Below, one piece after another: positions 3,304 to 24,326 of a stretch of DNA of 34,603 bases. Position 1 is the first letter of the stretch. Every line of letters starts with the position of its first letter. Under the pieces are notes generated by a model that was not told the DNA's origin, did no database searches, and saw nothing but the letters and a program-made list of their open reading frames with translations. Where the stretch lies: NCBI GenBank assembly GCA_031459535.1, contig JAVKIJ010000031.1, positions 1 through 34,603 of the forward strand, given 5' to 3'. The stretch is from Candidatus Fervidifonticultor quintus (GTDB lineage: Bacteria > Sysuimicrobiota > Sysuimicrobiia > Sysuimicrobiales > Humicultoraceae). The position numbers and the translations under genes are program-made.

Positions 3304-3927
3304 CTAGAAGTCAGAGGCGTCGGGCTCGAGCCCACCGAGATGGCAGACGTCGTTGAGCAGGATGACACGGGTGCGGTCCCCCTCGCTGTCCAGGATGTTC
3401 AGGCAGCCCGTGTCCTGACGGATGCGCCAGAAACCGTCGTCGCCCAGTCCCAGGGCCGCGCAGATGAGCAGCTTGTTCACCACCCTGTGGGACACCACCG
3501 CGACCGACGCTTCCTGATGACGGGCGGCGATGCGGGTCAGGGCCGCAACTGCCCGCTGGCGGACCTCGGCCAGCGTCTCTCCTCCAGGAGGCCGAACCAG
3601 GTGCGGCGCCGCCAGCCAGCGCGCGTAGAGGTCAGGAAACTGGGCCGCCACCTGGTCGTGGGGCAGCCCTTCCCACGCGCCGTAGCTCATGTCCACCAGG
3701 CCGTCGGCGGGCTGCGGCAGCGGACCAGGCAGGTGGCGCGCGGTGGCCAGCGCCCGCGACAGCGGGCTGCAGTAGACCGCGGCCAGCGGCTGCCCGGCCA
3801 GGCGGCGGGCCAGCGCCTCAGCCTGCCGGATCCCCACAGAGCTCAGTGGAACATCGGCCCGGCCGCGGAAGATCTGCTGGCGGTTCCACTCGGTCTGCCC
3901 GTGACGGATCAGGAAGATTCTGGCCAC
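3304..3927 (-). CDS. Histidine phosphatase family protein (phosphoglycerate mutase/CobC-like)
   Basis: IFLIRHGQTEWN, CSPLSRA, YGAWEG, GGETL and VVSH motifs. The GTG start at 3927 overlaps the upstream TAG (TAGTG). The longer ORF-track extension is a shadow of the permease gene. Confidence 0.9.
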   Translation of the reverse strand: MARIFLIRHGQTEWNRQQIFRGRADVPLSSVGIRQAEALARRLAGQPLAAVYCSPLSRALATARHLPGPLPQPADGLVDMSYGAWEGLPHDQVAAQFPDLYARWLAAPHLVRPPGGETLAEVRQRAVAALTRIAARHQEASVAVVSHRVVNKLLICAALGLGDDGFWRIRQDTGCLNILDSEGDRTRVILLNDVCHLGGLEPDASDF

Positions 3928-4850: not shown

Positions 4851-4869
4851 AGCGGCATCCGTGGCACGG

Positions 4870-7477: not shown

Positions 7478-7485
7478 CGCGCCTG

Positions 7486-8502
7486 CTATCTGATCGGTGT
7501 CGTGTCCTTGACGACCTTGATCTTGCCCGCCACGAGGTCCGCCATCAGCCTGCGCATGGCAACGCTGACCGGCTGGGGCACGTTCCTCAGCGGGAACTGT
7601 AACCCCACGCCGGTGTCGAACCCCAACGGATAGTAGCCGCTGGTCTCGCCACGTCCGACCTTCCGGACAATCGCCCGTAGGGGACCGGCGAAGTCATAGA
7701 GCACCGACGTGACATAATGCTGGGGCGCGAAACTCAGCTTGTCGGTGTACTTGGCCGTCACCCACACCCGGCGAGGCGAGGCCTTCACCGCCTCGAAGAC
7801 GCCCAGCATCCCCAGGTTGAGGGAGCCCATGATCACGTCGGCGCCTTCGGCGATGAGCGCGTCGGTGACCTGGCGCGCTTTGGCCGGGTCGTTGAAATCG
7901 CCGACCCACACCGGTTTGAACTCCACGGGCCGCCGCTGGTCGCGCAGCGCCTGCCGGATGGCATGGACCTCGGAGTACGAGAACGGCAGCGTCAGGCCTC
8001 CCACGTATGCGACCTTCCCGCTCTGGGTGAGCATCGCGGCCAGGGCCCCAATAGGGTAGAAGCCGATGTGGAAGTTGCGGTCGATCACCCACAGGTTCCC
8101 CGGCGGCCGCTCGGCCAGGGGGGCGTCGGCCTCTCCGATGAAGACCACCGTCCTGAACTCCCGGGCGAGCTTTTCCGTCTGGGAAATGAACTGTCCGCCG
8201 TGGGTCCAGATGATGGTGAACTTCAGGTCGACGTACTCCCGCATCACCCGTTCCACGTCTGGTACGGGAACGCTCTCGGAGTACGCCACTTCGATCCCCA
8301 GCTCGCTGCTCACCGACCGCAGGGCCACAAAGCCCAGGGTGTTGTAGTCGGCGTCGGTGACCACGCCCGGGAAGATGCCTGCCACCTTCGGCTTGGCAGC
8401 AGGGGCGGCCCGCAGCTCCGTGGTCATCGGCAGCACCGCCGCCGGGATCATGGCCCCCAGGGCCAGGAAGACTGCGATCAGGCGTACCCGGCGAGTACCC
8501 AT
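7486..8502 (-). CDS. BMP family ABC substrate-binding protein
   Basis: N-terminal signal peptide; DADYN, HGGQF and WVGDFNDPAKAR motifs typical of Bmp/PnrA. The ATG at 8502 fits SD spacing better than 8508. Confidence 0.9.
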   Translation of the reverse strand: MGTRRVRLIAVFLALGAMIPAAVLPMTTELRAAPAAKPKVAGIFPGVVTDADYNTLGFVALRSVSSELGIEVAYSESVPVPDVERVMREYVDLKFTIIWTHGGQFISQTEKLAREFRTVVFIGEADAPLAERPPGNLWVIDRNFHIGFYPIGALAAMLTQSGKVAYVGGLTLPFSYSEVHAIRQALRDQRRPVEFKPVWVGDFNDPAKARQVTDALIAEGADVIMGSLNLGMLGVFEAVKASPRRVWVTAKYTDKLSFAPQHYVTSVLYDFAGPLRAIVRKVGRGETSGYYPLGFDTGVGLQFPLRNVPQPVSVAMRRLMADLVAGKIKVVKDTTPIR

Positions 8503-8589
8503 CCTCATGGCCTCCTTCCCCCCCTCTGGCCAGACCTTTCCCCCTGGCGCGCGCGGCCACCTTCCCGGAGAGTGGCTCGGAATCTGCAG

Positions 8590-8940
8590 CTAGACCGCGA
8601 CCACCTGGTCAGCCCCCAGCAGGAGACCGACGATATCGTTCATGCCACCGACCTCGCCGACAGCCACCTTGTCGCGGAGGTTGAAATACTCCAGGCACGT
8701 GCCGCAGATGACCAGGCGGACGCCGATGCCCTGCAACAGTTGGAGGCCGGGAATCACCGGTGACCCCTCGCAGACAAGTTTGACTCCCTCGGTATAGAAG
8801 CAGATCGCGGATGGTTTGACCGAGGAGGCCTCGAGGGCGTGGAGGAAGCGGTCAAACATCTCCACGCCGAAGGACGCATCGTGTGGATGAAGATGGCCCA
8901 ACCCCGCCTGACGTACGAGCACCACGGTGTTTCGTGCCAA
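8590..8940 (-). CDS. DsrE-fold / YedF-like sulfurtransferase-like protein
   Basis: ICFYTEGVKL, ICGTCLEYF and VAVGEVGGMNDIV match the YedF C-terminal DsrE domain; TTG start after an AAGGAGG SD. Confidence 0.8.
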   Translation of the reverse strand: MARNTVVLVRQAGLGHLHPHDASFGVEMFDRFLHALEASSVKPSAICFYTEGVKLVCEGSPVIPGLQLLQGIGVRLVICGTCLEYFNLRDKVAVGEVGGMNDIVGLLLGADQVVAV

Positions 8941-8989
8941 TGGAGCACCCTCCTTGGTTTGGGCTTGGGTATGCCGGGCGGCACGTGTC

Positions 8990-9847
8990 CTACCGGGCCT
9001 CCCGAACGTATCCGTGGAGTCTCTGGTTGAACTCGAGCGACGTCTGACCAAACGCCTGCACGAAGGCGGCCTCCGGCTCGGGCTCCGCCCTGAAGAGCCT
9101 GAAGTACCTGAAGAGGGCGTCCTTCCCTTTCTGCTGCACCAGGTAGTCAACGGCCACCAGAGCAGTAGCGTACACCACGCGCCGCGTGAGCGTGTGCGCG
9201 CGACGCTCCCAGAGGTCGGGCGTCGTCAGGGAACCGAGAGACGGCAGCCCTCCCACGCTCTGTCGCTCCCGGAGCAGGTTGGCGGCCGCGGCGATCGTCT
9301 GCGGATAGACGATCAGGCCCTTGTGGTGAAGGAAGTGCTTGGCGAACACCTCCGCGGTCCCTTCCTGGATCCAGGCGTAGGGGGATCCTCTCCATCCTGA
9401 GAGTTCCTGGTGATAGATGTGGACCATCTCGTGCGCCAGGTCAGAGAGGAACCGGGTCTGATCGCCGGTGGCCGGGTGGCCGAGGTTGATGAAGATCTGG
9501 CTCGCCGCGTCGACCATCATCCAGTGACCCCCGGGGGTCAGTCCCATGCGCGCCAGGGTCTCATTCACTCTCACGCCGGTCCTGAGGATAGAGTCCACGT
9601 AGGCCTCAGCTGTGGCGGACAGGTGCACCCTGACCTGCCTGGAGACCGTGATGGAGAACTCGGCGGAAAGGAAGTCGTCCGCCTCAAGGAGAGTGCGCTG
9701 GATCTCGCCGGCCGCCTGGGCGCTCACGCCTGGGCCGGAGCGGACGGCCAGGTTGATCCCATAGGCCGGCGGGGACGCGATGCACAGCGTCAGCACCGCG
9801 CCAACTGCAAGGACGGGCACCAGGCGGCAGCGCGCGCAGTTGGTCAC
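8990..9847 (-). CDS. Secreted zinc metallopeptidase-like protein (clan MA / gluzincin-like)
   Basis: Signal peptide; LAHEMVHIYH (HEXXH) plus downstream WIQEGTAE; C-terminal FVQAFGQT resembles Peptidase_MA-like proteins. Confidence 0.75.
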   Translation of the reverse strand: MTNCARCRLVPVLAVGAVLTLCIASPPAYGINLAVRSGPGVSAQAAGEIQRTLLEADDFLSAEFSITVSRQVRVHLSATAEAYVDSILRTGVRVNETLARMGLTPGGHWMMVDAASQIFINLGHPATGDQTRFLSDLAHEMVHIYHQELSGWRGSPYAWIQEGTAEVFAKHFLHHKGLIVYPQTIAAAANLLRERQSVGGLPSLGSLTTPDLWERRAHTLTRRVVYATALVAVDYLVQQKGKDALFRYFRLFRAEPEPEAAFVQAFGQTSLEFNQRLHGYVREAR

Positions 9848-9988
9848 TGTGAACCCTCCCTTGACCCGTGAGTCCCTCAGGGAAATTTGGAAAGCCCTCT
9901 CACGTCATTCCTGCCCGGGAGGAGAGGACCGGCCTCGACGGCCGTTTCGGAAGCAGCGTGCAGGCGAAAACCCGCGTCCTGACCGGAC

Positions 9989-10064
9989 TGGCGCGCCCGG
10001 AGGGACTTGAACCCCCGACCTACGGCTCCGGAGGCCGCCGCTCTATCCGCTGAGCTACGGGCGC
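9989..10064 (-). tRNA. tRNA-Arg(CCG)
   Basis: The 76-nt reverse complement GCGCCCGTAGCTCAGCGGATAGAGCGGCGGCCTCCGGAGCCGTAGGTCGGGGGTTCAAGTCCCTCCGGGCGCGCCA folds as a cloverleaf; anticodon loop CTCCGGA, TTCAA T-loop, encoded CCA. Confidence 0.97.
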
Positions 10065-10076
10065 GTGCCGCAGGCC

Positions 10077-10085
10077 ATTATAGCA
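10077..10085 (-). promoter_or_regulatory. Extended -10 promoter of tRNA-Arg
   Basis: TGcTATAAT on the minus strand, 12 nt upstream of the tRNA 5' end, followed by a GC-rich discriminator. Confidence 0.75.
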
Positions 10086-10099
10086 CCGACGCCACCTGG

Positions 10100-10128
10100 T
10101 TGACAGCGCCATGCCGATCGCCTAATGT
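10100..10128 (+). promoter_or_regulatory. Sigma70-type promoter of the IclR operon
   Basis: TTGACA (10100-10105), 17-nt spacer, TAATGT (10123-10128). Confidence 0.75.
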
Positions 10129-10130
10129 AC

Positions 10131-10143
10131 GAAACATAGTTTC
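10131..10143. promoter_or_regulatory. Candidate IclR operator
   Basis: Palindrome GAAAC-ATA-GTTTC over the expected +1, immediately upstream of an IclR gene. Confidence 0.6.
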
Positions 10144-10173
10144 AGCATCGCGCCGCGGGATCACAGGAGCAGC

Positions 10174-10968
10174 ATGCCACAGCCACCCTGGGCGGCCATT
10201 CTGGAAACCCTGGCCAGTTCCAGCGACGGTCTGACTGTCAGCGAGCTGGCAGGTGCGCTGGGCACCTACAAAGGGGTCGTCTCTCGCACGCTGAGCACGC
10301 TGGTCGCGCTGGGCTACGTCCGTGCCAACGCCGCCACCCGCCGTTACACCCTCGGCCTGCCGCTCGTGGCCCTGGCCTTCCGCTTCGCGGACCTGACGGG
10401 ATTCCCCGGAGTCTGCCAGCCCGTGCTCCAGGATCTGGCGGACGCCACCGGCGAATTGGCGCAGCTGGCGGTGGTGGAGCACCACCGGGTCCTCTTCGTC
10501 GCCAAAGCCGAAGGCCGCGATCAACGCATTCGTATGGCGTCTCTGGTGGGCCACTTCGCGCCGCTCCACGCCACCGCGGCCGGCAAGGTCTATCTGGCCA
10601 GCCTTCCCGAGGGGGAGGCCCTGGATATCGCGGTGCGGGCCGGGCTGCGTTCGTTCACCCGCCACACCATCACCACTCGCACGCGTCTGAGGCGTGAGCT
10701 GCACATGGTGCGACGTCTCGGGTACGCCACCGTCGAGGAGGAGCTCGTGGACGGAGCGGGCGCCGTCGGCGTGCCCGTCCGGGTGGCGCGCCACGGCGGC
10801 CGCGTCGTCGGCGCGGTGGTGCTCTCGGGACCGACCTTCCGACTTCCGGCCGCCCGCAAACGGGAGCTGGTACCGCTTCTGCTGACGGCCGCCGATCGCC
10901 TGGGGAGCATCTGGCCGCTCCATAGAGCGGGAACCGCACCCGCCGCTGCCACGCAGGGGTTCCCATGA
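10174..10968 (+). CDS. IclR family transcriptional regulator
   Basis: N-terminal HTH (LTVSELAGALG...VSRTLSTLVALGYV); PLHATAAGKVYLA and GYATVEEE effector-domain motifs; AGGAG SD. Confidence 0.95.
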   Translation: MPQPPWAAILETLASSSDGLTVSELAGALGTYKGVVSRTLSTLVALGYVRANAATRRYTLGLPLVALAFRFADLTGFPGVCQPVLQDLADATGELAQLAVVEHHRVLFVAKAEGRDQRIRMASLVGHFAPLHATAAGKVYLASLPEGEALDIAVRAGLRSFTRHTITTRTRLRRELHMVRRLGYATVEEELVDGAGAVGVPVRVARHGGRVVGAVVLSGPTFRLPAARKRELVPLLLTAADRLGSIWPLHRAGTAPAAATQGFP

Positions 10969-11522
10969 GTCAGTCGCGGTCGCGCCCCCGGAGGGCCGCG
11001 CGTGAGCAGCGCGTACGGATCGCCCTCGAGGTCAACGGCCGCCGGTACGTGCTGGAGGTCCCGCCGCAGCATACACTGCTGGACGTCCTGCGGGGGCACC
11101 TGGGCCTGCTGGGCACCAAGGAATCGTGTCGGGAAGGCGTCTGTGGCGCCTGCACGGTGCTGCTGGACGGCCGGCCGGTCAACGCGTGCCTCCTGCTGGG
11201 CGCTTCGGCGGGCGGGCGGGCGGTCACGACGGTCGAGAGCCTGACCGAGGGCGACGCCCTGCACCCGCTCCAGCAGGCGTTCATCGAGTGCGGCGCCATC
11301 CAGTGCGGCTATTGCACACCTGGCATGCTGCTGTCGGCCAAGGCTCTGCTCGCCACATGCCCGATGCCGACCGACGAGGAGATCCGCCGTGGACTGTCGG
11401 GCAACCTGTGTCGCTGCACCGGCTACCACAAGATCGTGGAGGCCGTGCGGCTGGCGGCCTCACGCATGGCATCGGGTGCAAACCGCCCGGCACCTGACGG
11501 GGGACGCGCGTGGGAACGTTGA
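10965..11522 (+). CDS. 2x[2Fe-2S] small subunit of a xanthine dehydrogenase/CoxS-family enzyme
   Basis: [16 protein letters not shown]...C and QCGYCTPG...NLCRCTGY motifs; ATGA overlap with iclR. Confidence 0.95.
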
Positions 11523-13789
11523 TCGGGCGGTCGCTTCCCCGCCTTGACGGCCACCTGAAGGCCACAGGGCGCTTCCACTACGGCATCGATCTGACCGTGC
11601 CGGGCGCACTCGCGGGCCACCTGGTCCGCAGTCCGTACGCGCACGCCCGAATCCGTGCGATCGACCTGTCGCCGGCGCTGGCCGTCCCGGGGGTGGTGGT
11701 CGCGGTGAGCGGACGCGATCTCCCTGACCGGCGCTTCGGCGGGCTGGTCAAGGACGAGACGGTGCTGGCCGCAGACGTCGTGCGCTACGTCGGTCAGCCG
11801 GTGGCCGCAGTGGCCGCCACCACGGCCGAGGTGGCCGCCGAGGCCGCCGGGCGGGTGGTGGTGGACTATGAGCCGCTGCCCGCCATCGAGGACGTCGACG
11901 CCGCGCTGCGGGAGGGAGCTCCCCTGGTGCACGAGGCCTGGGCATCTTACGTCGCGCATCCCAACGTGGTCCGGTGCGGCAACGTGTGTGGCCAGGCGAC
12001 GATCCTCAAGGGTGACATCGAGCGGGGCTTCGCCGAAGCCGATCACGTCTTCGAAGATGTGTTCACCACGGAACCAGTGCATCAGGCCTATCTCGAACCG
12101 CGGATGGCCGTGGCGAGCTGGGATCCTGCGGGGTCCCTCACCGTCCACTCCAACACCCAGCTGCCGTTCGAGGTCCAGGGCGCCCTGTCCGACATCCTGG
12201 GAATCCCGCCTGGACGCATCCGGGTCATCGCCACCGGCATCGGCGGTGCGTTTGGCGGCAAACTCCGCATGGGCGTCGAACACATCGCCGCCGTGCTGGC
12301 CCAGCGCGCGGGCCGGCCGGTGCGGGTCGCGCTCACCATGGAGGAGGAGTTCGCCGCCGCCTACCCTCGCCACGCCATGCGCATCACCCTGCGCACCGGC
12401 GTGCGGCGCGACGGCACCATCGTGGCCAAGGAAGCCCATGCGTGGCTCGACGCGGGCGCGTTCAGCGGCTCGAGCCCGGGGCTCCCGTCGGTGGCGACGT
12501 TGGTGCTCGCCGGCCCGTATCGCATCCCACACCTGCTGCTCGAGGCCGTCGCGGTCTACACCCATAAGCAGAACTTCGGCTCCTACCGGGCCCCGACTGG
12601 CCCCCAGTGCGCCTTCGCGGTCGAGTCACAAATGGACATGATCGCCCGTCGCCTGGGCCTGGACCCGCTCGCATTTCGGCTGCGCAACATCGTGCGCGAC
12701 GGCGACCAGGGGCCCACTGGGCAGGTCTTCGGCCGCGTCAGCTTGGAGACGGCGCTGCGGCGCGTGGCCGAAGCCATCGGGTGGGAGGAGCGCAGGCGAC
12801 CCCGTCGCGGCAAGGGCCTGGCGTGCGGCTGGTGGACTACGACCGGCGGCCCCTCAGGCGTGTACGCGAAGCTGCACCCGGACGGGACGGCCACGCTGGT
12901 CACGGGGTGCGCCGAGATCGGCACCGGTGCCCTCAGCGTCGCTGCCCAGCTCTTCGCTGACGAGCTCGGCCTGCCCCTCGAGGCAGTCAGCTTGATCAGC
13001 GCCGACACGTTCGCGACTCCTTATGATCACGGCGCGCAGGGGAGCCGCTCGGCGTTCGCCGTGGGCAACGCGGCACGGGATGCGGCGGCCGAGATCCGCC
13101 AGCAGGTGCTGCGCCTGGCTGCTGAAGCCATGGAGGCCAGCATCGCGGACCTAGAGCTGCGCGACGCGAGCGTGGTCGTACGAGGCACGCCCTCCCGGCG
13201 GATGCCGCTGGCCGACGTGGTCAAGTTGGCCATGCAGCGCCAGGGGGGCCTCGTCGCCACCGGGACGTTCGTGGCGCCGGCGACGCCATACGACAGCCAC
13301 TGTGTCCGCGGCCACTTCTACCCCGCGTTCAACTCGCCGAGCTTTCACGCCCACGCGGCCGAGGTGGAGGTGGATCCCGAGACCGGGGGTGTGCGGGTGG
13401 TGCGGTATGTCGTCGCCCAGGACGTGGGCAGGGCCCTCAACCCCCGCTTGATCGAGGGGCAGATCGAAGGCGGGGTGGTGCAGGGCCTGGGACAGGCGCT
13501 GCGGGAGTGCATCCCCTACCAGGATGCGCATCCCGCCGTCCACAATCTCAGCGACTACGCCCTGCCCCGGATCACCGATATCCCGGCCATCACGAGCATT
13601 CTCATCGAAGAGCCCAGCGACGTCGGCCCTCACGGCGCCCGCGGGGTGGGCGAACCTCCCATCATTGAGCCGCCGGCGGCGGTCGCCAACGCCATTGACG
13701 ATGCGGTGGGCGCCCGGGTCACGAGCCTGCCCCTGTGGCCCGAGCGCGTGTTCCGCGCCATAGGCGCACACCAGAGAGGAGGCGCGTGA
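11510..13789 (+). CDS. Xanthine dehydrogenase family molybdopterin-binding large subunit (not CO dehydrogenase)
   Basis: HQAYLEP, GGAFGGK, EIGTG, GQIEGGVVQGLG and RGVGEPP (catalytic Glu). The active-site loop reads SYRAPTGP, not the CoxL AYxCSFR. Confidence 0.93.
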   Translation: MGTLIGRSLPRLDGHLKATGRFHYGIDLTVPGALAGHLVRSPYAHARIRAIDLSPALAVPGVVVAVSGRDLPDRRFGGLVKDETVLAADVVRYVGQPVAAVAATTAEVAAEAAGRVVVDYEPLPAIEDVDAALREGAPLVHEAWASYVAHPNVVRCGNVCGQATILKGDIERGFAEADHVFEDVFTTEPVHQAYLEPRMAVASWDPAGSLTVHSNTQLPFEVQGALSDILGIPPGRIRVIATGIGGAFGGKLRMGVEHIAAVLAQRAGRPVRVALTMEEEFAAAYPRHAMRITLRTGVRRDGTIVAKEAHAWLDAGAFSGSSPGLPSVATLVLAGPYRIPHLLLEAVAVYTHKQNFGSYRAPTGPQCAFAVESQMDMIARRLGLDPLAFRLRNIVRDGDQGPTGQVFGRVSLETALRRVAEAIGWEERRRPRRGKGLACGWWTTTGGPSGVYAKLHPDGTATLVTGCAEIGTGALSVAAQLFADELGLPLEAVSLISADTFATPYDHGAQGSRSAFAVGNAARDAAAEIRQQVLRLAAEAMEASIADLELRDASVVVRGTPSRRMPLADVVKLAMQRQGGLVATGTFVAPATPYDSHCVRGHFYPAFNSPSFHAHAAEVEVDPETGGVRVVRYVVAQDVGRALNPRLIEGQIEGGVVQGLGQALRECIPYQDAHPAVHNLSDYALPRITDIPAITSILIEEPSDVGPHGARGVGEPPIIEPPAAVANAIDDAVGARVTSLPLWPERVFRAIGAHQRGGA

Positions 13790-14097
13790 TGCCCGTGGTG
13801 GTGTTCCTGGCCCGCCTGAAGCCGGGTGCCGATCCCGCGGCCTACGAACAATGGGTGCGGGAGGTTGACTATCCCAGGGCGCGACGGCTGCCGAGCGTCA
13901 TCTCCTACGTCAACCACCGCTTGCAGGCCCCGCTACGCAAAGCGGATGTCCGGTACGACTACCTGGAGATCCTGCACGTCACGGACCTCGACGCGTACCG
14001 GCAGGATCTCACCCGGCCGGAGATTGTGGAGCTGCGGGCTCAGTTGATGCAGTTCATCGAGCCTTCGGACAACTGGGTGGGCGAGGTCATCGCATGA
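13789..14097 (+). CDS. RedY/HapK-like small dimeric alpha/beta-barrel (EthD-like) protein
   Basis: LKPGADPAAYEQWVREVDYP...LPSV...YDYLEIL pattern; TGATG overlap with the upstream gene; AGGAGG SD. Confidence 0.7.
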   Translation: MPVVVFLARLKPGADPAAYEQWVREVDYPRARRLPSVISYVNHRLQAPLRKADVRYDYLEILHVTDLDAYRQDLTRPEIVELRAQLMQFIEPSDNWVGEVIA

Positions 14098-15152
14098 GCC
14101 TGGAAGTCGGCATCCTGCTGTTGGGCGAGCACAGCCCCTCGCGCCTGGTGAGCCTGGCGCAGCAGGCGGAAGCCCTCGGCTATGGCTATGTGTGGTACGC
14201 CGATGAACGGTTCTTCCGCGAGGTCTACAGCGGGCTGGCGCTCATCGCGGCGCGCACGTCGCGGGTCCGGCTGGGCCCCGGTGTCACCGATCCCTACTCC
14301 CGCCACCCGGCACTGACCGCGATGGCCATCGCCACGTTGGACGAGATGAGCGAGGGCCGCGCGGTCCTGGGGCTGGGCGCCGGCATCTCAGGTTTCAGGG
14401 AGCTGGGCGTGGCGCGCGAGCGCCCGGCGGTCGCGATCCGAGAGGCTGTGGAGGTGGTGCGCGCGCTGCTGCGGGGCGACCGCGTGACGTATAACGGCCA
14501 GGTAATACGAACATCGGATGCGCGCCTCAACTTCACGCCTCCCCGCGCAGACGTGCCGATTTACGTGGCCAGCAACGCCCCACGCGGACTGGAGGTCGCC
14601 GGCCGGGTCGCCGACGGCGCCATCATGCAGGGCTGCGTCTCCGACCTCGCGCTGCAGTACTTCAAGACCCATGTGGCGCGCGGTGAGCGGGCCGCAGGCC
14701 GGCTACCGGGTCAGGTGGCGCTGGTGGCGCGGGTCAATGTCTGCATCGATGACGACCCGCGCGCTGCCAGGGACCTGATGCGGCGCTCGGTGGCCAACAG
14801 CCTGCTCGCACAGCAGCCGGACTTCCCGGGGTTCCTCGCCGCCGGCTTGGAGATTCCCCAGACGCTGCGCGAGGCGGTCGCAGGGTCCAGCTACGGCTAC
14901 GGCAGCGATGCGCCCGCCCGCATCGCACCCAGCATTCCCGATGCCTTCGTCGACGCGCTGACGCTGGCAGGCACCGCCGAGGACGTCACGGCCGGTGCAT
15001 CACGCCTGATCGCGGCCGGGATCCGCCAGCTCCTCATCTTCCCCATGGATCTAGAAAAGCGTATCGAGCGGACGATCGAGCGCTTTGCGAGTGACGTGCT
15101 CCCGCGCGCGGTGCGCATGGCTGCCGGGCCGGCGCGCGGATCGGAGGCCTGA
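14094..15152 (+). CDS. LLM class flavin/deazaflavin-dependent oxidoreductase, Mer-like
   Basis: RLGPGVTDPYSRHPALTAMAIATLDEMSEGRAVLGLGAG and PIYVAS...AGRVADG; ATGA overlap. Confidence 0.9.
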   Translation: MSLEVGILLLGEHSPSRLVSLAQQAEALGYGYVWYADERFFREVYSGLALIAARTSRVRLGPGVTDPYSRHPALTAMAIATLDEMSEGRAVLGLGAGISGFRELGVARERPAVAIREAVEVVRALLRGDRVTYNGQVIRTSDARLNFTPPRADVPIYVASNAPRGLEVAGRVADGAIMQGCVSDLALQYFKTHVARGERAAGRLPGQVALVARVNVCIDDDPRAARDLMRRSVANSLLAQQPDFPGFLAAGLEIPQTLREAVAGSSYGYGSDAPARIAPSIPDAFVDALTLAGTAEDVTAGASRLIAAGIRQLLIFPMDLEKRIERTIERFASDVLPRAVRMAAGPARGSEA

Positions 15153-15175
15153 CGGCCGGGAGGTGACGGACGGAG

Positions 15176-15835
15176 ATGCCGACGCGGTTCGTGCTGGTGA
15201 GCCTGCGGCCAGGCGTTGCCGTGGCCGAGTACGAGCAGTTCATCCGCGAGTACGACTACCCCTGTCTGCCCGAGCTGCCGACCATCGTGCACTACCGCAC
15301 GCATCGGATTGACCCGCAGACCGTGCGAGGCGCGCCGCTGCCGTATCAGTACATCGAGCAGATCGTCGTCACCGACCCCCGGACGTACACCAGGGAGCTG
15401 GACGCCTCGGCCCGATTCGCCGAGTTCCGGGCCCGCAACCCCCGGTTCGTCGCACACCGGCTGGACTTCTGGACCGAGGTAGTCCCACCGACCCCGCTGT
15501 CGGGCGATGCTCCGACCGGCGTCTTCCAGCGCTGGGATGCCATTCCCCCAGAAGACGCGCGACCAGGCCTGCCGCTGCGGCGCCTCGCGGGACGGGCTAT
15601 GACCGCCACCCTGGTCACGCTCCACCCGGGTGTGACGGTGGCACCCCAGCAACACCAGGAGGAGCAACTTGTCCACATGCTCTCCGGCCAGCTGCGGCTG
15701 CAGGTCGGGAATGAGGCGCGGACGGTAGGTCCTGGAGATGTCGTCCTGATCCCACCGCAGGTCCCCCACACCGGCGAAGCGCTCGGGGAGGGACCGGCGA
15801 CGTACCTGGAAGTCCTGGCACGGACCACGGCGTGA
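15176..15835 (+). CDS. HapK-like domain fused to a C-terminal cupin domain
   Basis: N-terminal LRPGVAVAEYEQFIREYDYP...LPTI...YQYIEQI parallels the 13789 protein; C-terminal PQQHQEEQLVHMLSG...GPGDVVLIPPQVPH cupin motifs. Confidence 0.75.
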   Translation: MPTRFVLVSLRPGVAVAEYEQFIREYDYPCLPELPTIVHYRTHRIDPQTVRGAPLPYQYIEQIVVTDPRTYTRELDASARFAEFRARNPRFVAHRLDFWTEVVPPTPLSGDAPTGVFQRWDAIPPEDARPGLPLRRLAGRAMTATLVTLHPGVTVAPQQHQEEQLVHMLSGQLRLQVGNEARTVGPGDVVLIPPQVPHTGEALGEGPATYLEVLARTTA

Positions 15836-15855
15836 TGCGAAGGGGGTGCGCGAAG

Positions 15856-17490
15856 ATGCACGATGACAGACCACACCGAATAACGCGGCGGGAACTGCTG
15901 ATTCGCTCCGCGGGCGCGGCCGCCGGCGCCAGCCTCGCCAGCTACGACCGCACCTGGTTGCGGTCTGTGGCAGCGCTGGCCGCGCCGGCTCGAGTCTCGA
16001 CACGGCCCCTGGTGTTCGTGGTGCGGACCGAGACACTGACGCTCGACCCCCACCAGAACGATTTCATCTACTCCCAGAACGCCCAGCGCCCTGTCTACGA
16101 GCCGCTGGTGGACTACGCTCCCGACGGGAAGGGCGGAGCGACCATTGCGCCGGTCCTGGCCACCGAGTGGCGCATCTCAAATGATGCCAAGACGTACACG
16201 TTCCGGGTGCGGCCGAACGTCCGGTTCTCTGATGGCACCCCGTTTGATGCCGAAGCCGTCAAGTGGAACTTTGACCGGCTGAAAGCCGTGAACAAGGGGC
16301 CTGCTGCGCGCCTCCCGGCCATCGACCGCACGGAGGTCGTTGACCGTCTCACGGTGCGCGTGCATCTGCGGGCACCGTTCGCGCCGTTCATCCAGGCGCT
16401 GGCCAAAGCGCCCTACATGATCAGCCCCGCGGTCGGGAGCCGGGAGAGCGGCGGTGACCTAGCGCAACGGTGGCTCGACACCAACGCGGTGGGCACAGGT
16501 CCCTACCTGCTCGAGAGCTGGGTCCGGGGCCAGCAACTCACCTACACCCGCAACCCCAACTACTGGCGCGGCTGGAGCGGGCCGCACGCGGAGCGCATCA
16601 CGATCCGCCTGGTTCGCGAGTCGGCCACGCAACGTCTGATGCTGGAGACCGGCGAGGCCGACCTGGCCGACGGCATCATCATCACCGACGCGGACGCCAT
16701 GAAGAAGAACCCGTCTCTGGTGATCGAAGAACACAGCACGCCGGCGCAGATCCACGTCATGTTGCGCATGCGGGGCGCGATGCTCAACCCCAAGTTTCGG
16801 GAGGCCATGCGGGCCGTCTTCGGCTACACGAGCTTCGTGGGCGGAGTCCTGCTCAACAAGGGCCGCATCCCCAACGGCCCCATCGCCAAGGGCATCTGGG
16901 CCCATGATCCCACCCTGCCCCAGTTCCGGCGGGAGCTGGTCCGGGCACGCCAGCTCGTCCAGGAGGCCGCGCCTACCCAGCGGTCGTTCGTGTTGCAGAC
17001 GATCTCGCCGTTCTTCCCCTACTATCCTCAGCTCGCCCAGATCCTCCAGCAAAACCTCGCCGAGGTGGGCATCTCCCTGACCATCGAAGACCGGCTGGAT
17101 GCTGCCGGGTTCATCGGCGCGCTTGTGAACCTGGAGCGCGGTCCGGACATGTACGGCTGGGCCATCAACCCTGCCTACGACGATCCTCATGATATCCTGC
17201 ATCGCACGTACCACTCGGCGTCGCTCCCGCCCAACGCGCAAAACTTTACATTTTACAAGAACCCGCGACTGGATGAGCTGATTGATCGGGGCGTGGCGGC
17301 GCCCGACCGGGCCCGGCGGCAACCGTTCTACAACGAGGCGCAGCGTCTGCTCCGCAGCGACGGCCCAGCGATCTTCTGCGCCCAGTTCTTCCAGATCTTC
17401 GGCCGGCGCAAGCCGCTCAACGGGTTCGTCTGGCACCCGTTCCTGTTCAACCTGCCACCGGACTTCTACGCCCTCTGGGTGGAAGCGTAG
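15856..17490 (+). CDS. ABC substrate-binding protein, family 5 (Dpp/Opp-like), Tat signal
   Basis: TRRELL twin-arginine motif; YTFRVRPNVRFSDGTPFDAEAVKWNFDR, VGTGPY and RNPNYW. An alternative start lies at 15832. Confidence 0.93.
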   Translation: MHDDRPHRITRRELLIRSAGAAAGASLASYDRTWLRSVAALAAPARVSTRPLVFVVRTETLTLDPHQNDFIYSQNAQRPVYEPLVDYAPDGKGGATIAPVLATEWRISNDAKTYTFRVRPNVRFSDGTPFDAEAVKWNFDRLKAVNKGPAARLPAIDRTEVVDRLTVRVHLRAPFAPFIQALAKAPYMISPAVGSRESGGDLAQRWLDTNAVGTGPYLLESWVRGQQLTYTRNPNYWRGWSGPHAERITIRLVRESATQRLMLETGEADLADGIIITDADAMKKNPSLVIEEHSTPAQIHVMLRMRGAMLNPKFREAMRAVFGYTSFVGGVLLNKGRIPNGPIAKGIWAHDPTLPQFRRELVRARQLVQEAAPTQRSFVLQTISPFFPYYPQLAQILQQNLAEVGISLTIEDRLDAAGFIGALVNLERGPDMYGWAINPAYDDPHDILHRTYHSASLPPNAQNFTFYKNPRLDELIDRGVAAPDRARRQPFYNEAQRLLRSDGPAIFCAQFFQIFGRRKPLNGFVWHPFLFNLPPDFYALWVEA

Positions 17491-17501
17491 CGCGCCTGCC
17501 G

Positions 17502-18506
17502 ATGGTGCGATACCTCGTCCGCCGGGTCGCCAGTCTGATCTTTGTGCTCGCGGGCATGTCGGTGCTGACCTTTGTCATTTCCCACCTGATCCCCGGGGAC
17601 CCGGCCGCGGCCGCAGCGGGGCCGGATGCCACCGGGGCACAGATCGCGCAGTACCGCCGGGAGCTTGGCCTGGACCTGCCGCTCCCAGTGCAGTACGTCC
17701 GGTACGTGGGCGGCATCGTACTCCGTGGTGACCTGGGGCGGTCTATCCTCAACCAGCGCGCTGTCGCCGACGACATCCGGACGTTCCTCCCGGCCAGCCT
17801 GGAACTGGCGGCCGTCTCGTTCGTCATCTGCGTGCCGCTGGGTATCGCCCTGGGGACCTACACCGCCGTGCGGGCCGGCCGCGTCTCGGACGCGGTGGCG
17901 CGGGGATTCGCCGCTCTGGGCGTCTCCATGCCGGTCTTCCTCGTCGCCCTGCTCTTTCAGCTGTTCTTCTACAAGGAGCTGCGCTGGTTTCCGTCCGGAG
18001 GACGCCTGGGCAGCGACATCGCCCCGCCCGAGGTCATCACGGGGTTCCTGCTGGTGGACACGCTGCTGCGCGGCAACTGGCGGGCCTTCGCCAGCGGACT
18101 GCACCACATCGCGCTGCCGGCCGCGACGCTGGCCGTCGCCAATCTCGCAGTCATCACCCGGATGACCCGCAGCAGCCTCCTGGAGGTTCTCTCGGCCGAC
18201 TACGTCAGGACGGCGCGCGCCAAGGGTCTGACCGAGATCCGCGTGCTGCGCCACGCCTTGAAGAACGGCCTGATCCCGGTTGTGACGGTCATCGGGCTCC
18301 AGTTCGCGTCTATGATCGCGTATGTGTTCCTGGTCGAGCACATCTTCTCATGGCCCGGGCTTGGCTCGTACGCCGTGCGGGCGATCCTGGGCCTCGACTT
18401 CCAGCCCATCATGGCCATCACGCTGCTGCTCTCCGTCATCTATGTCGTCGTGAATTTTGCCGTGGACCTAATCTACCTGACCCTCGACCCACGAATCACC
18501 TACTGA
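17502..18506 (+). CDS. DppB/OppB-like ABC permease
   Basis: PGDPA, GLDLPLPVQY, GDLGRS, DYVRTARAKGL and DPRI motifs. Confidence 0.95.
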   Translation: MVRYLVRRVASLIFVLAGMSVLTFVISHLIPGDPAAAAAGPDATGAQIAQYRRELGLDLPLPVQYVRYVGGIVLRGDLGRSILNQRAVADDIRTFLPASLELAAVSFVICVPLGIALGTYTAVRAGRVSDAVARGFAALGVSMPVFLVALLFQLFFYKELRWFPSGGRLGSDIAPPEVITGFLLVDTLLRGNWRAFASGLHHIALPAATLAVANLAVITRMTRSSLLEVLSADYVRTARAKGLTEIRVLRHALKNGLIPVVTVIGLQFASMIAYVFLVEHIFSWPGLGSYAVRAILGLDFQPIMAITLLLSVIYVVVNFAVDLIYLTLDPRITY

Positions 18507-18525
18507 GGCTGGACGCGGCATCCCC

Positions 18526-19428
18526 ATGCAAGAGGGCTTCACATCCCAGCGCACCGTCCCCTGGGTCCTCCACCTGGCACCCCTCTCAAGGCGCCTGTTC
18601 CTGCGCCGGCTCCGCCGCAACCAGGGCGCCCTGGGAGGGCTGGTCCTGCTGGTGGCGCTGGTGGCTGTCGCGCTGCTCTCAACAGTAGCCACCCCGGCCG
18701 ATCCGTACGCAATAGCCGTCGAACGCCGCTTCCTGCCGCCCGGTGTCGGAGGCGCCTTCGGCACCGATGACCTCGGCCGGGACTTGCTCAGTCGCGTCAT
18801 GGTCGGGACGCGCATCTCGCTGGTCGTGGCGGCCCTGGTGCTCCTGATCGCCAGCGCGGTCGGGGTGCCACTGGGCATCATCTCGGGATACCGCAGCGGC
18901 TGGCTGGACGATGTGATCATGCGCACCGCCGATATCTTCCTGGCCTTCCCGTCGTTCCTGCTGGCAATGGCGATCGTCGCCGCCCTGGGGTCGGCCATGG
19001 CCAATGCCGTCCTCGCCGTGGGCATCGCCTGGTGGCCGCGCTACGCGCGGCTGCTCCGGGCTCAGGTGCTTTCGGTCAGGCAAACGCTCTACGTGGAGGC
19101 TGCTCGGGCGCTGGGTGCATCCGAGCGACGGGTGTTGACCCGGCATGTGCTGCCCAACTGCCTCGGCCCGCTGATGGTACAGCTCGCCACGGACGCCGGC
19201 AACGCCATTCTGATCACGGCCAGTTTGAGCTTCGTCGGGTTGGGCGCCAAGCCGCCGTCACCTGAGTGGGGCTTCATGGTCGCGCAAGGCCGCCAGTTCC
19301 TACTGACCGCGTGGTGGGTACCGATCGTCCCCGGTCTGGCCATCGCCGCCACTGTGGCGGCGTTCCTGTTCGTCGGCGACGGGTTGCGCGACCTCCTCGA
19401 TCCTCGTCTGCGCGACCGGGTGGTCTGA
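18526..19428 (+). CDS. DppC/OppC-like ABC permease
   Basis: FGTDDLGRD, YVEAARALGAS, RHVLPN, PEWG and GDGLRDLLDPR motifs. Confidence 0.95.
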   Translation: MQEGFTSQRTVPWVLHLAPLSRRLFLRRLRRNQGALGGLVLLVALVAVALLSTVATPADPYAIAVERRFLPPGVGGAFGTDDLGRDLLSRVMVGTRISLVVAALVLLIASAVGVPLGIISGYRSGWLDDVIMRTADIFLAFPSFLLAMAIVAALGSAMANAVLAVGIAWWPRYARLLRAQVLSVRQTLYVEAARALGASERRVLTRHVLPNCLGPLMVQLATDAGNAILITASLSFVGLGAKPPSPEWGFMVAQGRQFLLTAWWVPIVPGLAIAATVAAFLFVGDGLRDLLDPRLRDRVV

Positions 19429-19441
19429 GGGGCAGGCCCGC

Positions 19442-20320
19442 CTACTCCTCCGCGTACGCCCGTCCCAGGGCCTCGGGCCGCGCGAGGCCCCACCGGGTCC
19501 TAAACCACGGCGTCGAGATCACCGCCAGGATCAGGATGGTCACCACGAAGGGGACGGTCCGCCACACATAGCGGGACAGGACGCCGGGGAGGAGGAGTTC
19601 GGGATTGAGGGAAAGTTGCCACATGACGCCAAACAGCAGCGAGCCCGCCAGCAAGATCAACGGGTTCCACATAGAGAAGAAGACGAGGGCCAGGCTCACG
19701 AACCCCCAGCCCTGAAGAAAGTTGTAGTTCCAGACGGGATTATAGGACAACGTGTAGAAGGCGCCGGACAGACCGCCCAGCGTGCCGCCCCAGACCACGC
19801 ACAGGTAGCGGATGGCCGGCACATTGACGCCGGAGGCCTCGGCGGAGGCCGGGTTCTCCCCCACGGCGCGGATTGCCAGACCCAGGCCGGTGCGCGAGAG
19901 CACGACCCAGGTCGCCGCCACCAGCAGGAGCCCGAGGTAGACGAACGGCGAGAGGCCCGCAATCGGGGCAATCCGCGCCATCCCCAGCGGCCCCGTGAAC
20001 GGATTCCCGATGTAGGTGGTCAGCCCGAAGCTCAGAATCCACAGCCCCATGCCGCTCACGACCTGATCACCCCGTAGCGTGATGGTGAAGAAGCCGTGGG
20101 CCAGACCGAGGAAGGCGCCGACGGCCAGGCCGGCGAGGAACCCCAGGCCGTGACTGCCCACCACCTGCGCGGTGATGAAGGCCAGGGTGCCGCCGAAGAG
20201 CATCAGCCCTTCTAGGCCCACGTTGAGGACGCCGGCGCGCTGGTTGACCAGTTCGCCCAGCGCCGCGAAGAGGAAGACCGTCGAGGCTTCCAGGCTACGG
20301 ACGAGCAGCTCGGGCGTGAC
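19442..20320 (-). CDS. BMP/nucleoside-type ABC permease, second subunit; start codon non-canonical or mutated
   Basis: The conserved N-terminus LFAALGELVNQRAGVLNVGLEG extends upstream of the ORF-track start (20221) to the TAAGGAGG SD at about 20325-20332; AVGENPASAEASGVNV and GWGFVSLAL motifs. Confidence 0.85.
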   Translation of the reverse strand, partial: VTPELLVRSLEASTVFLFAALGELVNQRAGVLNVGLEGLMLFGGTLAFITAQVVGSHGLGFLAGLAVGAFLGLAHGFFTITLRGDQVVSGMGLWILSFGLTTYIGNPFTGPLGMARIAPIAGLSPFVYLGLLLVAATWVVLSRTGLGLAIRAVGENPASAEASGVNVPAIRYLCVVWGGTLGGLSGAFYTLSYNPVWNYNFLQGWGFVSLALVFFSMWNPLILLAGSLLFGVMWQLSLNPELLLPGVLSRYVWRTVPFVVTILILAVISTPWFRTRWGLARPEALGRAYAEE

Positions 20321-20329
20321 GATGCCTCC

Positions 20330-21469
20330 TTAGGGCCCCCCGGTCGAGACGTCGGGCAGCGGCCGCAGCGCCACGGGCCGCCAGGCGATGCGGAAATGAT
20401 ACAGCAGGTGGGAGCCCACGAACGTCATCATGAGCAGCCCCAGCATGGCGTAGTCGACGCCAAAGGGCAGGCGCAGCGCACCCTGGGCGAACCGGGCGCC
20501 CAGCGAGAGCCCGGCGAACAGCACGGCGACCGGCACGGCCGCGAGCGAGCTCCCGCGGGCGATGAGCGCGCAGATGATCCCGTAAAAGGCCAGATCGCCG
20601 TAGTAACCGTAGTTTCCGGGGATCTTGTAGAGACCGGGCACCGCCCCGAAGTAGTGGTAGCCGGCCAGGCCGGCGAAGACGCCGCCCACCAGGAAGACGC
20701 TCAGCGACAGCCTGACCGCGCCGATGCCCGCGTAGCGCGCCGCCAACGGGTTCTCACCGAGGGCCCGCGCCCGGTAGCCAGCCGCGGTTCGGGCGAACAC
20801 AAAGTCGAGCAGCAGGGCCGCGCAGAACGCGAAGACAGCCGTGACCGGTACGCCAAACAGGAGCGGCGCGCGCAGGGCCGCCGGAAGCACGAAACCCTCG
20901 CCCTCGGCCGTGGCGCTCATGAAGGGGCCGCCCTCTTTGATGAGGTTTGCCACGAGCCAGAACAGGACCGAGTTGAGCATCATCGTCACGAGGATCTCGT
21001 TGACATTGAGCCGGGCGCGCAGGACTCCCGCCAGACCGGCGAGGGCCGCACCCGCTGCCGCGGCGGAGATGACCATCGCCACCATCAGCAGCACCGGGGC
21101 CACAGGAGCGGCCGCGGGGTCCGCTGCCCCCACGGCGAAGGGGACGGCAAACGCGGCCAGGGCGCCCGCATACACCTGGCCGGGCAGCCCGATGTTCCAC
21201 AGCCCCGCGCGCAGTGGCACCAGAAACGCAAACGCGCACAGCAGGATGTAGATGGCGCGGTGGATGGTGGCCACCAGGCCGCGGGGATTGACGAACGCGT
21301 ATGCGAAGACGATGCGGTACGCGGAGAGCGGGTCACCCTCACCGGGCAGGAACAGCAGGCTGGAGAGGAGCAGCGCCAAGACGATGGCCCCCCCGGCGGT
21401 CAGGAACGCGTGCGCGGCCGGCGGGACCGGCCTGTGCTCGACCGTTACGACGTACCGCCAGAGCCTCAA
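20330..21469 (-). CDS. BMP/nucleoside-type ABC permease, first subunit
   Basis: LWNIGLPGQ, NEILVTMMLN and GENPLAARYAGI; the TTG start overlaps the ATPase stop (TTGA). Confidence 0.9.
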   Translation of the reverse strand: MRLWRYVVTVEHRPVPPAAHAFLTAGGAIVLALLLSSLLFLPGEGDPLSAYRIVFAYAFVNPRGLVATIHRAIYILLCAFAFLVPLRAGLWNIGLPGQVYAGALAAFAVPFAVGAADPAAAPVAPVLLMVAMVISAAAAGAALAGLAGVLRARLNVNEILVTMMLNSVLFWLVANLIKEGGPFMSATAEGEGFVLPAALRAPLLFGVPVTAVFAFCAALLLDFVFARTAAGYRARALGENPLAARYAGIGAVRLSLSVFLVGGVFAGLAGYHYFGAVPGLYKIPGNYGYYGDLAFYGIICALIARGSSLAAVPVAVLFAGLSLGARFAQGALRLPFGVDYAMLGLLMMTFVGSHLLYHFRIAWRPVALRPLPDVSTGGP

Positions 21470-23034: not shown

Positions 23035-23040
23035 GGACCC

Positions 23041-24306: not shown

Positions 24307-24326
24307 GTCGATCCCCCAACGCCGTT

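Follow-up and report, generated by a model that had tools for sequence, protein, structure and literature searches.

Molybdenum (Mo) hydroxylases initiate the breakdown of N-heteroaromatic compounds in gene clusters of the quinoline, nicotinate, nicotine and picolinate types. A nine-gene operon with some of the same parts lies at positions 10174-19428 of contig JAVKIJ010000031.1 from Candidatus Fervidifonticultor quintus, the whole 34,603 nucleotides of which (34.6 kb, ~69% G+C, even throughout) are referred to here as the window. It encodes an IclR-family regulator, the small and large subunits of a Mo hydroxylase, a HapK/RedY-family protein, a luciferase-like oxidoreductase (LLM), a second HapK domain fused to a cupin (HapK-cupin), and a family-5 solute-binding protein with two permeases. 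It is rated as a Mo-hydroxylase-initiated catabolic operon with unusual partner enzymes, and with a probability of roughly one half it serves, under IclR control, to take up a small N-heterocycle or cyclic amide and to carry out the first stage of its degradation.

Like the operon, the described N-heteroaromatic clusters place xanthine dehydrogenase (XDH)-family subunits, with two [2Fe-2S] sites and with molybdopterin, beside a regulator and a transporter. However, they use flavin monooxygenases, ring-cleaving dioxygenases and amidases, whereas the operon has an F420-class LLM, HapK and HapK-cupin. It also differs in that the flavin adenine dinucleotide (FAD) subunit is unlinked in four of the six stretches compared (the window and five related loci, L001-L005) and in that its importer is of the Dpp type without ATPase genes.

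The closest logic is found in the reductive uric acid pathway (E. coli xdhD-ygfK-ssnA-hyuA). According to the accessible part of its description, an XDH homologue acts first, and the ring is then dearomatised by a reductase and opened by hydrolases, HyuA among them, in a hydantoinase-type step, while in urate clusters of Chloroflexota a predicted F420 'luciferase family' reductase replaces YgfK beside XdhA/XdhD homologues (bioRxiv 10.1101/2025.05.19.654654). The pairing of a Mo enzyme with an F420-class LLM has a predicted precedent in these clusters, and the operon adds a second, independent case of it. Comparison of 25 window proteins and three locus proteins with the E. coli urate set by BLASTP matched only XdhA, XdhB, XdhC, XdhD, YgfM and HyuA, with no homologues of SsnA, YgfK, YgeW, YgeX or YgeY, and because of these absences the operon is not the reductive urate pathway. 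The latter also has no HapK or cupin part, the word 'cupin' occurring 0 times in the accessible part of its text.

Other described systems share single components with the operon. 4-Hydroxybenzoyl-coenzyme A (CoA) reductase (HcrCAB, PDB 1rm6/1sb3) gives the large subunit its highest score, which comes nowhere near the equivalog cutoff. No CoA ligase or benzoyl-CoA genes lie nearby, and the FAD subunit of the related loci is unlike HcrB. The HapK/RedY proteins of prodiginine clusters (2jdj) have PF11639 in common with the operon, in which the context is instead one of import and redox functions and one of the copies is cupin-fused. The fusions of an antibiotic biosynthesis monooxygenase (ABM) domain with a cupin are analogous in joining an alpha+beta barrel to Cupin_2, but their N-terminal domain is PF03992 rather than PF11639, with no sequence-level relationship shown between the two. 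The catabolism of lumichrome/riboflavin was considered and rejected as, in the part of the source that is accessible, it shares only a xanthine-oxidase-like enzyme and a cupin with the operon and uses a P450, a thiamine pyrophosphate-dependent decarboxylase, a Rieske dioxygenase and a single-chain 140-kDa oxidase (PMC12746152).

A literature search, with supplementary files and subscription journals outside its range, found no published match for this gene combination and only incidental mentions of HapK/RedY. The first-pass annotation of the window, made from its letters alone, had named a match to an already characterised pathway as grounds for giving up its proposal, and none came to light. 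The operon would be the first conserved HapK/RedY context outside pigment biosynthesis, with a testable partner in the fused cupin, and it points to organic-nitrogen use in the Sysuimicrobiota (CSP1-3), a phylum discussed mainly for autotrophy.

Conservation, layout and promoter region

An alignment of 18 of the 21 HapK-cupin sequences was used to seed a profile search of genome contigs, which returned 37 pattern matches and five confirmed loci. Three of these are titled Candidatus Fervidifonticultor, assigned by the NCBI taxonomy to Candidatus Sysuimicrobiota (CSP1-3), family Humicultoraceae, and the other two derive from metagenome-assembled genomes. The order of all nine genes is identical in five of the five loci, with protein identities of 52-92%; this was the co-occurrence check that the first-pass annotation had asked for, and its alternative, a gene set not kept together elsewhere, is not what was found.

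The flanks, by comparison, vary, with four different upstream and four different downstream neighbourhoods. Upstream of the operon there are Mo-enzyme accessory genes in L001 and L002, haem-synthesis genes and a UPF0102 gene in L003 and L004 (with RNase HII downstream), a transposase in L005, and a tRNA gene and a Bmp-type transporter in the window. The downstream Bmp transporter of the window recurs only in L002, and the binding-protein gene is duplicated within the operon in L003 and L004. A block that stays intact amid changing surroundings looks like a selected functional unit. Indirect further support for synteny comes from contig sizes: for eight of the 20 non-self fusion clusters the longest contig is the same size as that of an LLM cluster, and for five of the 20 the same size as that of a HapK cluster, most such equal-sized contigs lying outside the five loci examined. 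The full set is kept in a few uncultured hot-spring and soil bacteria of one lineage, and as the HapK and HapK-cupin markers were seen only there, the finding is narrower than the 'new system' first proposed, which holds up in being conserved and without a published match. In L005 (275-3188) only a truncated form of the IclR gene is present (180 aa, 53% coverage), lying behind a DDE transposase and a 2-hydroxyacid dehydrogenase fragment.

All nine open reading frames (ORFs) of the operon are on the plus strand, with G+C at third codon positions of 0.82-0.88 and a coding-type codon-position G+C. Four of the junctions are overlaps and the remaining gaps are of 23 nt or less, in the order ATGA, 13-nt overlap, TGATG, ATGA, 23-nt gap, TGATG, 11 nt and 19 nt; the TGATG between HapK-cupin and the binding protein becomes a 20-nt gap if the latter starts at 15856. 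These junctions and the Pfam domains agree exactly with the first reading of nine co-directional genes. The start of HapK was refined to the ATG at 13789, behind GAGAGGAGG, instead of the longest-ORF start at 13735, which gives a protein of 102 aa and matches 14 of its 19 homologues (the other five have 101-110 aa). A search of plasmid sequences with the operon DNA gave no match.

Together the nine genes make up a single conserved unit of the transcription type, preceded by a conserved TTGACA box and a palindromic candidate operator. The palindrome GAAACATAGTTTC was found through alignment of upstream regions and occurs once in the window, with 0 copies expected (100 shuffles). An inverted-repeat search of 10060-10180 at seed 6 was empty because the arms of the palindrome are 5 nt. 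The palindrome recurs, symmetrically altered, in four of the five relatives. GAAACAAAGTTTC lies at 4950-4962 in both L001 and L002, 5' of the IclR gene, and a TTGACA at 4903 in L001 and 4904 in L002 precedes it by 47 and 46 nt respectively. L004 has GCAACAAAGTTGC, in which both arms are changed with the symmetry retained, and L003 the near-copy GCAACAAAGTTGT; in L005 a TTGACA is present at 2529, but no operator palindrome was found upstream of IclR. The -10 element TAATGT is weak, with three of six matches to TATAAT, for which reason it was not listed by a consensus promoter scan, the single site listed being on the minus strand and fitting a tRNA gene. The 'one promoter/operator' originally described is supported by conservation across relatives and not by the consensus scan. 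A site just past the -10 fits repressor binding, making the palindrome a candidate operator, and with IclR as first gene autoregulation is probable.

The tRNA gene, which immediately precedes the operon, is that of tRNA-Arg(CCG) at 9989-10064 on the minus strand (ARAGORN; Rfam 67.7 bits). Within the 109 nt that separate it from the IclR start are the TTGACA, the TAATGT and the palindrome. A minus-strand promoter-like site for tRNA-Arg at 10077-10106 (CTGTCA, 18 nt, TATAAT; 10 of 12 matches) overlaps the TTGACA box of the operon, which gives two promoters back to back. The 5' side of a tRNA gene is not the usual side for island integration, and a tRNA-linked island was rejected as an explanation, the operon being on the 5' (promoter) side of tRNA-Arg, not at its 3' end, and the G+C content being even.

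The predicted enzymes, importer and regulator

The small subunit of the Mo hydroxylase has intact Cys motifs (C55-x4-C60-x2-C63-x11-C75 and C114-x2-C117-x31-C149-x-C151) and is 45% identical to E. coli XdhC. The large subunit is, with Ald_Xan_dh_C and both molybdopterin-binding domains, a member of the xanthine-oxidase family. Its GVGEPP (~residues 712-717) retains a Glu which aligns with the Glu of 1rm6, 8uem and 1t3q, and the Glu of this C-terminal GxGE motif is presumably the active-site residue of Mo hydroxylases. The alignments also show an Arg in FGSYRAPTGPQ, and GGAFGGKL, with Leu following GGK. Its best solved relative in a PDB search is the alpha subunit of 4-hydroxybenzoyl-CoA reductase (374.6 bits), and further behind are CoxL, quinoline 2-oxidoreductase (275.7), 6-hydroxypseudooxynicotine dehydrogenase (265.1) and nicotinate dehydrogenase (217.1 bits). 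HcrA, XdhA and PucD are its best NCBIfam models, ahead of glyceraldehyde dehydrogenase alpha (426 bits), but the scores fall short of the HcrA equivalog (TIGR03194, 542.4 bits against a cutoff of 994.55), of the xanthine dehydrogenase models (XdhA/PucD/XdhB types; 460.1, 452.4 and 447.5 against 780, 916 and 783.65) and of the CoxL models for aerobic carbon monoxide (CO) dehydrogenase (368.5 against 950 and 309.7 against 991.15). The identity to E. coli XdhA is 31% and that to XdhD 29%.

A gene for the FAD subunit is found in L001 and L002 only (two of the six stretches), divergent beside the IclR gene and sharing the operator region with it. Both loci also carry CoxD-like AAA and XdhC genes beside it, to which L002 adds CoxG and a CoxE-type von Willebrand factor A (VWA) protein and L001 a MobA-like nucleotidyl transferase. 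The L001 subunit scores 102.9 against the 404.55 of the HcrB model. From this adjacency the enzyme of the window is most likely a three-subunit Mo hydroxylase whose FAD subunit is encoded elsewhere.

The LLM, for which the first-pass annotation had left open flavin or F420 redox, can be narrowed to the F420 class from its model scores and PDB relatives. Its 14 best NCBIfam matches all belong to the F420 class, the models of which give 72-203 bits compared to at most 57 bits for the FMN class, and among its 11 best PDB relatives ten are F420-named and one is a 'Luciferase family protein'. Mer leads among these, although the Mer equivalogs themselves are missed (203.4 against 276 and 195.1 against 348.7). 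Unlike the HapK proteins, the LLM has many relatives with 53-61% identity, two of them labelled Rokubacteria/Rokuibacteriota, and the ESM-Atlas clusters nearest to it occur most often in Methylomirabilota, Pseudomonadota and Actinomycetota. No cof genes were found within the window. The best plasmid homologue, at 32.7% identity, is from Variovorax and lies beside npdG and cofGHDCE. In that record (Variovorax sp. PBL-E5 plasmid 3, L008) positions 7968-15940 hold the LLM together with npdG, a complete cofGHDCE set and a gene for a GTP-binding protein, adjoined by amidohydrolase and C-N hydrolase genes, and the region resembles an F420-dependent catabolic island in a betaproteobacterium.

Both HapK modules pass the PF11639 gathering score of 25 and match PDB 2jdj (E 8e-8 for HapK and 1e-5 for HapK-cupin), with 35% identity to each other. 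Both proteins are rare. HapK has 19 homologous clusters, and all six with an organism label are Armatimonadota. HapK-cupin is represented by 21 clusters, its own included, among 5.8 billion proteins, the six with an organism name being labelled Armatimonadota or simply 'bacterium', and it has one match at E <=1e-30 among 1.84 billion 50%-identity representatives; a protein of 230 aa (P0164) is a possible distant fusion of the same kind. The nearest ESM-Atlas clusters are ABM-cupin proteins with scores of 0.84-0.89, which lie below 0.9 and serve as leads only. In the AlphaFold2 model of HapK-cupin (mean predicted local distance difference test score, pLDDT, 87; predicted template modelling score 0.48), an alpha+beta domain is joined by a low-confidence linker to a cupin barrel. 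E163, H167 and H198 of the cupin are invariant and H160 and E162 are present in at least 90% of 18 aligned relatives, and we take these five to be candidate metal ligands from the cupin motif.

Modelling of HapK in complex with the HapK domain of the fusion gave a result in support of binding, with a score of 0.79 compared to 0.00 for the best of three controls; 97% or more of the contacts agree between the three runs, and the pLDDT of the partner is 88 or higher. This mark is reached by 58 of 80 solved complexes and two of 110 mismatched pairs, counts which are rough since custom alignments were used. It is a tentative suggestion that the two proteins form a mixed barrel dimer acting as a new ring-processing enzyme after Mo hydroxylation and F420-dependent dearomatisation, in an undescribed route for a five- or six-membered N-heterocycle of the pyrrole, imidazole, hydantoin or pyrimidine type. 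A role of HapK/RedY proteins as catalytic or scaffolding partners in catabolism is part of the same suggestion and equally doubtful at present; if true, a family so far unexplained in prodiginine clusters would gain a function.

The importer has the core of a Dpp/Opp/Nik (PepT-type) system, namely a family-5 binding protein and two permeases. The best models of the binding protein are below NCBIfam cutoffs (GsiB 165 against 594, NikA 149 against 393), as are those of the permeases (Opp2C 283.5 against 300, Opp2B 263 against 350), and PDB sequence searches with the binding protein and the cupin were unspecific. The regulator has both the HTH_IclR and the IclR_C effector domain and is an IclR member with BhcR as its best NCBIfam model (142 against 350). 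The binding protein and the IclR/operator pair offer simple handles for finding the substrate.

Substrate class, proposed pathway and alternatives

The relatives carry accessory genes. In three of the five loci (L003, L004 and L005) a DUF917/S-Me-THD-like gene lies between the binding protein and the permeases. The protein encoded after DppC in L005 exceeds the D-hydantoinase/dihydropyrimidinase cutoff (401.3 against 393.25) and shares 37% identity with HyuA of E. coli; HyuB and a fragment of HyuA are encoded close by. Genes for an asparaginase and an aldehyde dehydrogenase follow the operon in L001. The genes recruited in the relatives act mostly on cyclic amides. The DUF917 gene of L003 (14936-16086) is split into overlapping frames near 15478-15481, due to an assembly frameshift or to its being a pseudogene. 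A thiohydantoin desulfurase, as in an ergothioneine/thiohydantoin route, was considered for the DUF917 genes and rejected on scores of 67 against 450 and 50 against 440; a literature search on that route found nothing usable.

The large subunit has 347 plasmid records at E <=1e-50, and five contexts were inspected from the 15 best rows (38-40% identity). The one in Thermomicrobium roseum is an orphan large subunit with uninformative neighbours. Genes for the medium, small and large subunits (M-S-L) follow HyuA-HyuB near an IclR gene in Rhizobium rhododendri, and occur with HyuA-HyuB, an ATP-binding cassette (ABC) transporter and PxpA in Aureimonas (HyuA-HyuB, ABC transporter, M-S-L, PxpA). On pSymB of Sinorhizobium meliloti (L010) M-S-L and a GTPase lie among a BMP-type transporter, amidohydrolases, a nucleobase permease and UbiD/UbiX, and in Cupriavidus campinensis (L013) the order is Amidohydro_2, UbiD, nucleobase permease, large subunit, UbiX, CobW, second permease and amidohydrolase. 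Four of the five contexts are therefore lactam- or nucleobase-type, with none of an aldehyde, sugar or CO type. A CobW-type GTPase gene stands directly after the large subunit in L010, after UbiX in L013 and directly after the LLM in L008; this metallochaperone-like partner is absent from the operon of the window.

An N-heterocycle or cyclic amide would on these grounds be the best-supported substrate class. The N-heterocycle named in the first-pass annotation has in this way gained indirect support from the retained Glu, the grouping with HcrA/XdhA/PucD, the hydantoinase and DUF917 genes of the relatives and the plasmid contexts.

The pathway may be envisaged as follows. IclR would occupy GAAACATAGTTTC, at the transcription start or slightly beyond it, and keep the operon repressed as long as neither the substrate nor a product is bound. 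The compound would be imported by the binding protein, predicted to be exported by the twin-arginine translocation (Tat) system, and the DppB/C-type permeases, with ATPases encoded elsewhere. The Mo/2x[2Fe-2S] enzyme, with an FAD subunit from elsewhere in the genome, would then alter the oxidation state of a ring carbon beside nitrogen, most likely by hydroxylation to a lactam, and the F420-class LLM may reduce (dearomatise) the ring or an imine in it. HapK and HapK-cupin, probably as a mixed alpha+beta-barrel dimer with a metal-binding cupin, would isomerise, cleave or hydrolyse the product. The final opening of the ring would fall to hydrolases outside the nine genes, such as those which relatives carry nearby.

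A number of findings weigh against this scheme. All nine operon proteins score below the curated NCBIfam cutoffs and thus cannot be equated with known enzymes. There is no FAD-binding medium subunit (CoxM-type; FAD_binding_5 and CO_deh_flav_C) in the window, no DppD/F-type ATPase in the six stretches (in a tblastn search with an ABC ATPase the only matches were of the Bmp type, in the window and L002), and no amidohydrolase or ring-opening hydrolase among the nine genes or in the window. As these parts are missing from the window and added in relatives, the route is not self-contained, as it was first thought to be. HapK, LLM and cupin occur in none of the five inspected plasmid contexts. Foldseek with the HapK-cupin model gave only generic small cupins (TM1459, KdgF, Sthe2323) and hence no function is assigned to it, while the HapK dimer has already been solved (2jdj, two chains), so the passing of the complex model may reflect likeness. 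All full-set loci come from one lineage and part of the synteny is therefore shared descent. The terms 'F420', 'xanthine' and 'molybd' are absent from the main text of the paper naming the genus. Xanthine dehydrogenases carry a Glu after GGxFGGK for purine binding, and the Leu of the large subunit at this position indicates that its site is not of the purine type. Finally, the best NCBIfam models of the small subunit and of the L001 FAD subunit are archaeal glyceraldehyde dehydrogenase gamma (191 bits against 290) and glyceraldehyde dehydrogenase beta (280 against 350), and with these sub-cutoff matches an aldehyde substrate is possible.

Following from the last point, the operon might serve an aldehyde or sugar route, with a sugar/oligosaccharide importer, the LLM as an alcohol/sugar dehydrogenase, a Mo aldehyde oxidoreductase of the glyceraldehyde-dehydrogenase type, a KdgF-like or sugar-isomerase cupin and a KdgR-like IclR. 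Family-5 importers carry sugars in some thermophiles, KdgR is the third-best model of the regulator (112.6 bits) and the cupin has KdgF as one of its closest matches in fold, while the F420 LLMs of the PDB include glucose-6-phosphate, alcohol and hydroxymycolate dehydrogenases. However, all of the supporting scores are below curated cutoffs, and for the large subunit HcrA (542), XdhA (460) and PucD (447) score above glyceraldehyde dehydrogenase alpha. Moreover, no kinase, aldolase, dehydratase or glycosidase is present in the operon or conserved beside it, and the accessory genes of the relatives (hydantoinase, DUF917 and asparaginase types) are for enzymes with amide substrates, making such a route unlikely.

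It is similarly improbable that the Mo chemistry runs in reverse, the enzyme being a reductive dehydroxylase (like 4-hydroxybenzoyl-CoA reductase or E. coli XdhD) in an anaerobic route in which an F420H2-dependent LLM dearomatises the ring. In keeping with this, 4-hydroxybenzoyl-CoA reductase alpha is the closest relative of the large subunit both among solved structures and in NCBIfam, the urate pathway, in the accessible part of its description, uses an XDH homologue reductively and then a reductase, with the F420 LLM variant predicted in Chloroflexota, and the lineage is given as facultatively anaerobic in the accessible part of its own. On the other hand, the HcrA and HcrB cutoffs are far missed by the large subunit and the L001 FAD subunit respectively, the identity to XdhD is low, and the urate marker ssnA is, together with ygfK, ygeW, ygeX and ygeY, without a homologue among the window proteins compared.

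Two unrelated functions on one transcript, where the importer would carry peptides or a metal/metallophore (e.g. nickel for the cupin), would agree with nickel, dipeptide and glutathione models being the best for the permeases and GsiB and NikA for the binding protein. These models are all sub-cutoff and score alike, and so do not discriminate; furthermore, the importer stays with the enzymes in five of the five loci, two of which duplicate the binding protein inside the operon, and in three an enzyme gene (DUF917) separates binding protein from permeases, all of which leaves little room for this explanation. A secondary-metabolite tailoring cassette is the least probable by far, given that there is no core biosynthetic gene, prodiginine genes included, in the window or the five loci, that the operon includes a binding protein of the import type and an IclR regulator and that plasmid homologues of HapK also occur in catabolic-looking contexts (one such context, itself uninformative, and one unannotated record), even though the HapK family is known by its Pfam name from prodiginine clusters and a figure legend places its fold with the cofactor-free antibiotic monooxygenases (PMC8093152).

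Coordinates and other genes of the window

The positions of the operon genes and of the candidate promoter elements are listed in Table 1.

Table 1. Genes of the operon and elements of its promoter region, with positions in the window.
Feature	Position	Strand	Supporting evidence
Candidate promoter: TTGACA 10100-10105, 17-nt spacer, TAATGT 10123-10128	10100..10128	+	Read from sequence
Candidate IclR operator, palindrome GAAACATAGTTTC (GAAAC-ATA-GTTTC), just downstream of -10	10131..10143	+	
IclR-family regulator, 264 aa, first gene	10174..10968	+	HTH_IclR 36.2 bits, IclR_C 122.9 bits (Pfam)
Mo-hydroxylase small subunit, 185 aa, two [2Fe-2S] sites	10965..11522	+	Fer2 and Fer2_2 (Pfam)
Mo-hydroxylase large (molybdopterin) subunit, 759 aa	11510..13789	+	Ald_Xan_dh_C 100.2, MoCoBD_1 247.4, MoCoBD_2 241.3 bits (Pfam)
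Stand-alone HapK/RedY-family protein, 102 aa	13789..14097	+	PF11639 54.2 bits, cutoff 25
F420-class luciferase-like oxidoreductase (LLM), 352 aa	14094..15152	+	Bac_luciferase PF00296 203.7 bits
HapK domain (about 1-105) fused to monocupin (about 115-219)	15176..15835	+	PF11639 38.4 bits (cutoff 25), Cupin_2 57 bits
Family-5 solute-binding protein	15835..17490	+	SBP_bac_5 235.4 bits; twin-arginine-like leader TRRELLI
DppB/NikB-type permease, 334 aa	17502..18506	+	BPD_transp_1 and BPD_transp_1_N (Pfam)
DppC/NikC-type permease, 300 aa	18526..19428	+	BPD_transp_1 and OppC_N (Pfam)

The operon is flanked by two paralogous operons for Bmp/PnrA-type ABC importers at 3927-8508 and 19442-24597, both on the minus strand, each with genes for a binding protein, a fused double ATPase and two permeases. 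The two ATPases are 43% identical to each other. On pSymB of S. meliloti, too, a BMP-type transporter neighbours the homologue of the Mo enzyme. These importers may be functionally linked to the operon. The downstream Bmp binding protein (23041-24597, minus strand) has 518 aa as called with the Bmp domain from residue 147, which implies either a long N-terminal extension or a miscalled start.

Between 24327 and 33887 on the minus strand there are two tandem resistance-nodulation-division (RND) efflux pairs, each consisting of an HlyD-type adaptor and an AcrB-type pump. The first AcrB ORF overlaps the adaptor gene and ACR_tran begins only at its residue 234, so the true start is probably ~700 nt further in. 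The tRNA gene is separated from the upstream Bmp operon by an ORF of 285 aa (8990-9847, minus strand), which has a good coding signal but no Pfam or NCBIfam match. ARAGORN also listed a tRNA-Ala(GGC) at 1799-1881 on the minus strand, inside the ORF of PanE (2-dehydropantoate reductase), which is unconfirmed at the Rfam gathering score and is thus probably a false positive. Genes for a small HU-type DNA-binding protein (2949-3236) and a histidine-phosphatase-family protein (3304-3900), both on the minus strand, fill a kilobase which had appeared to be gene-free.

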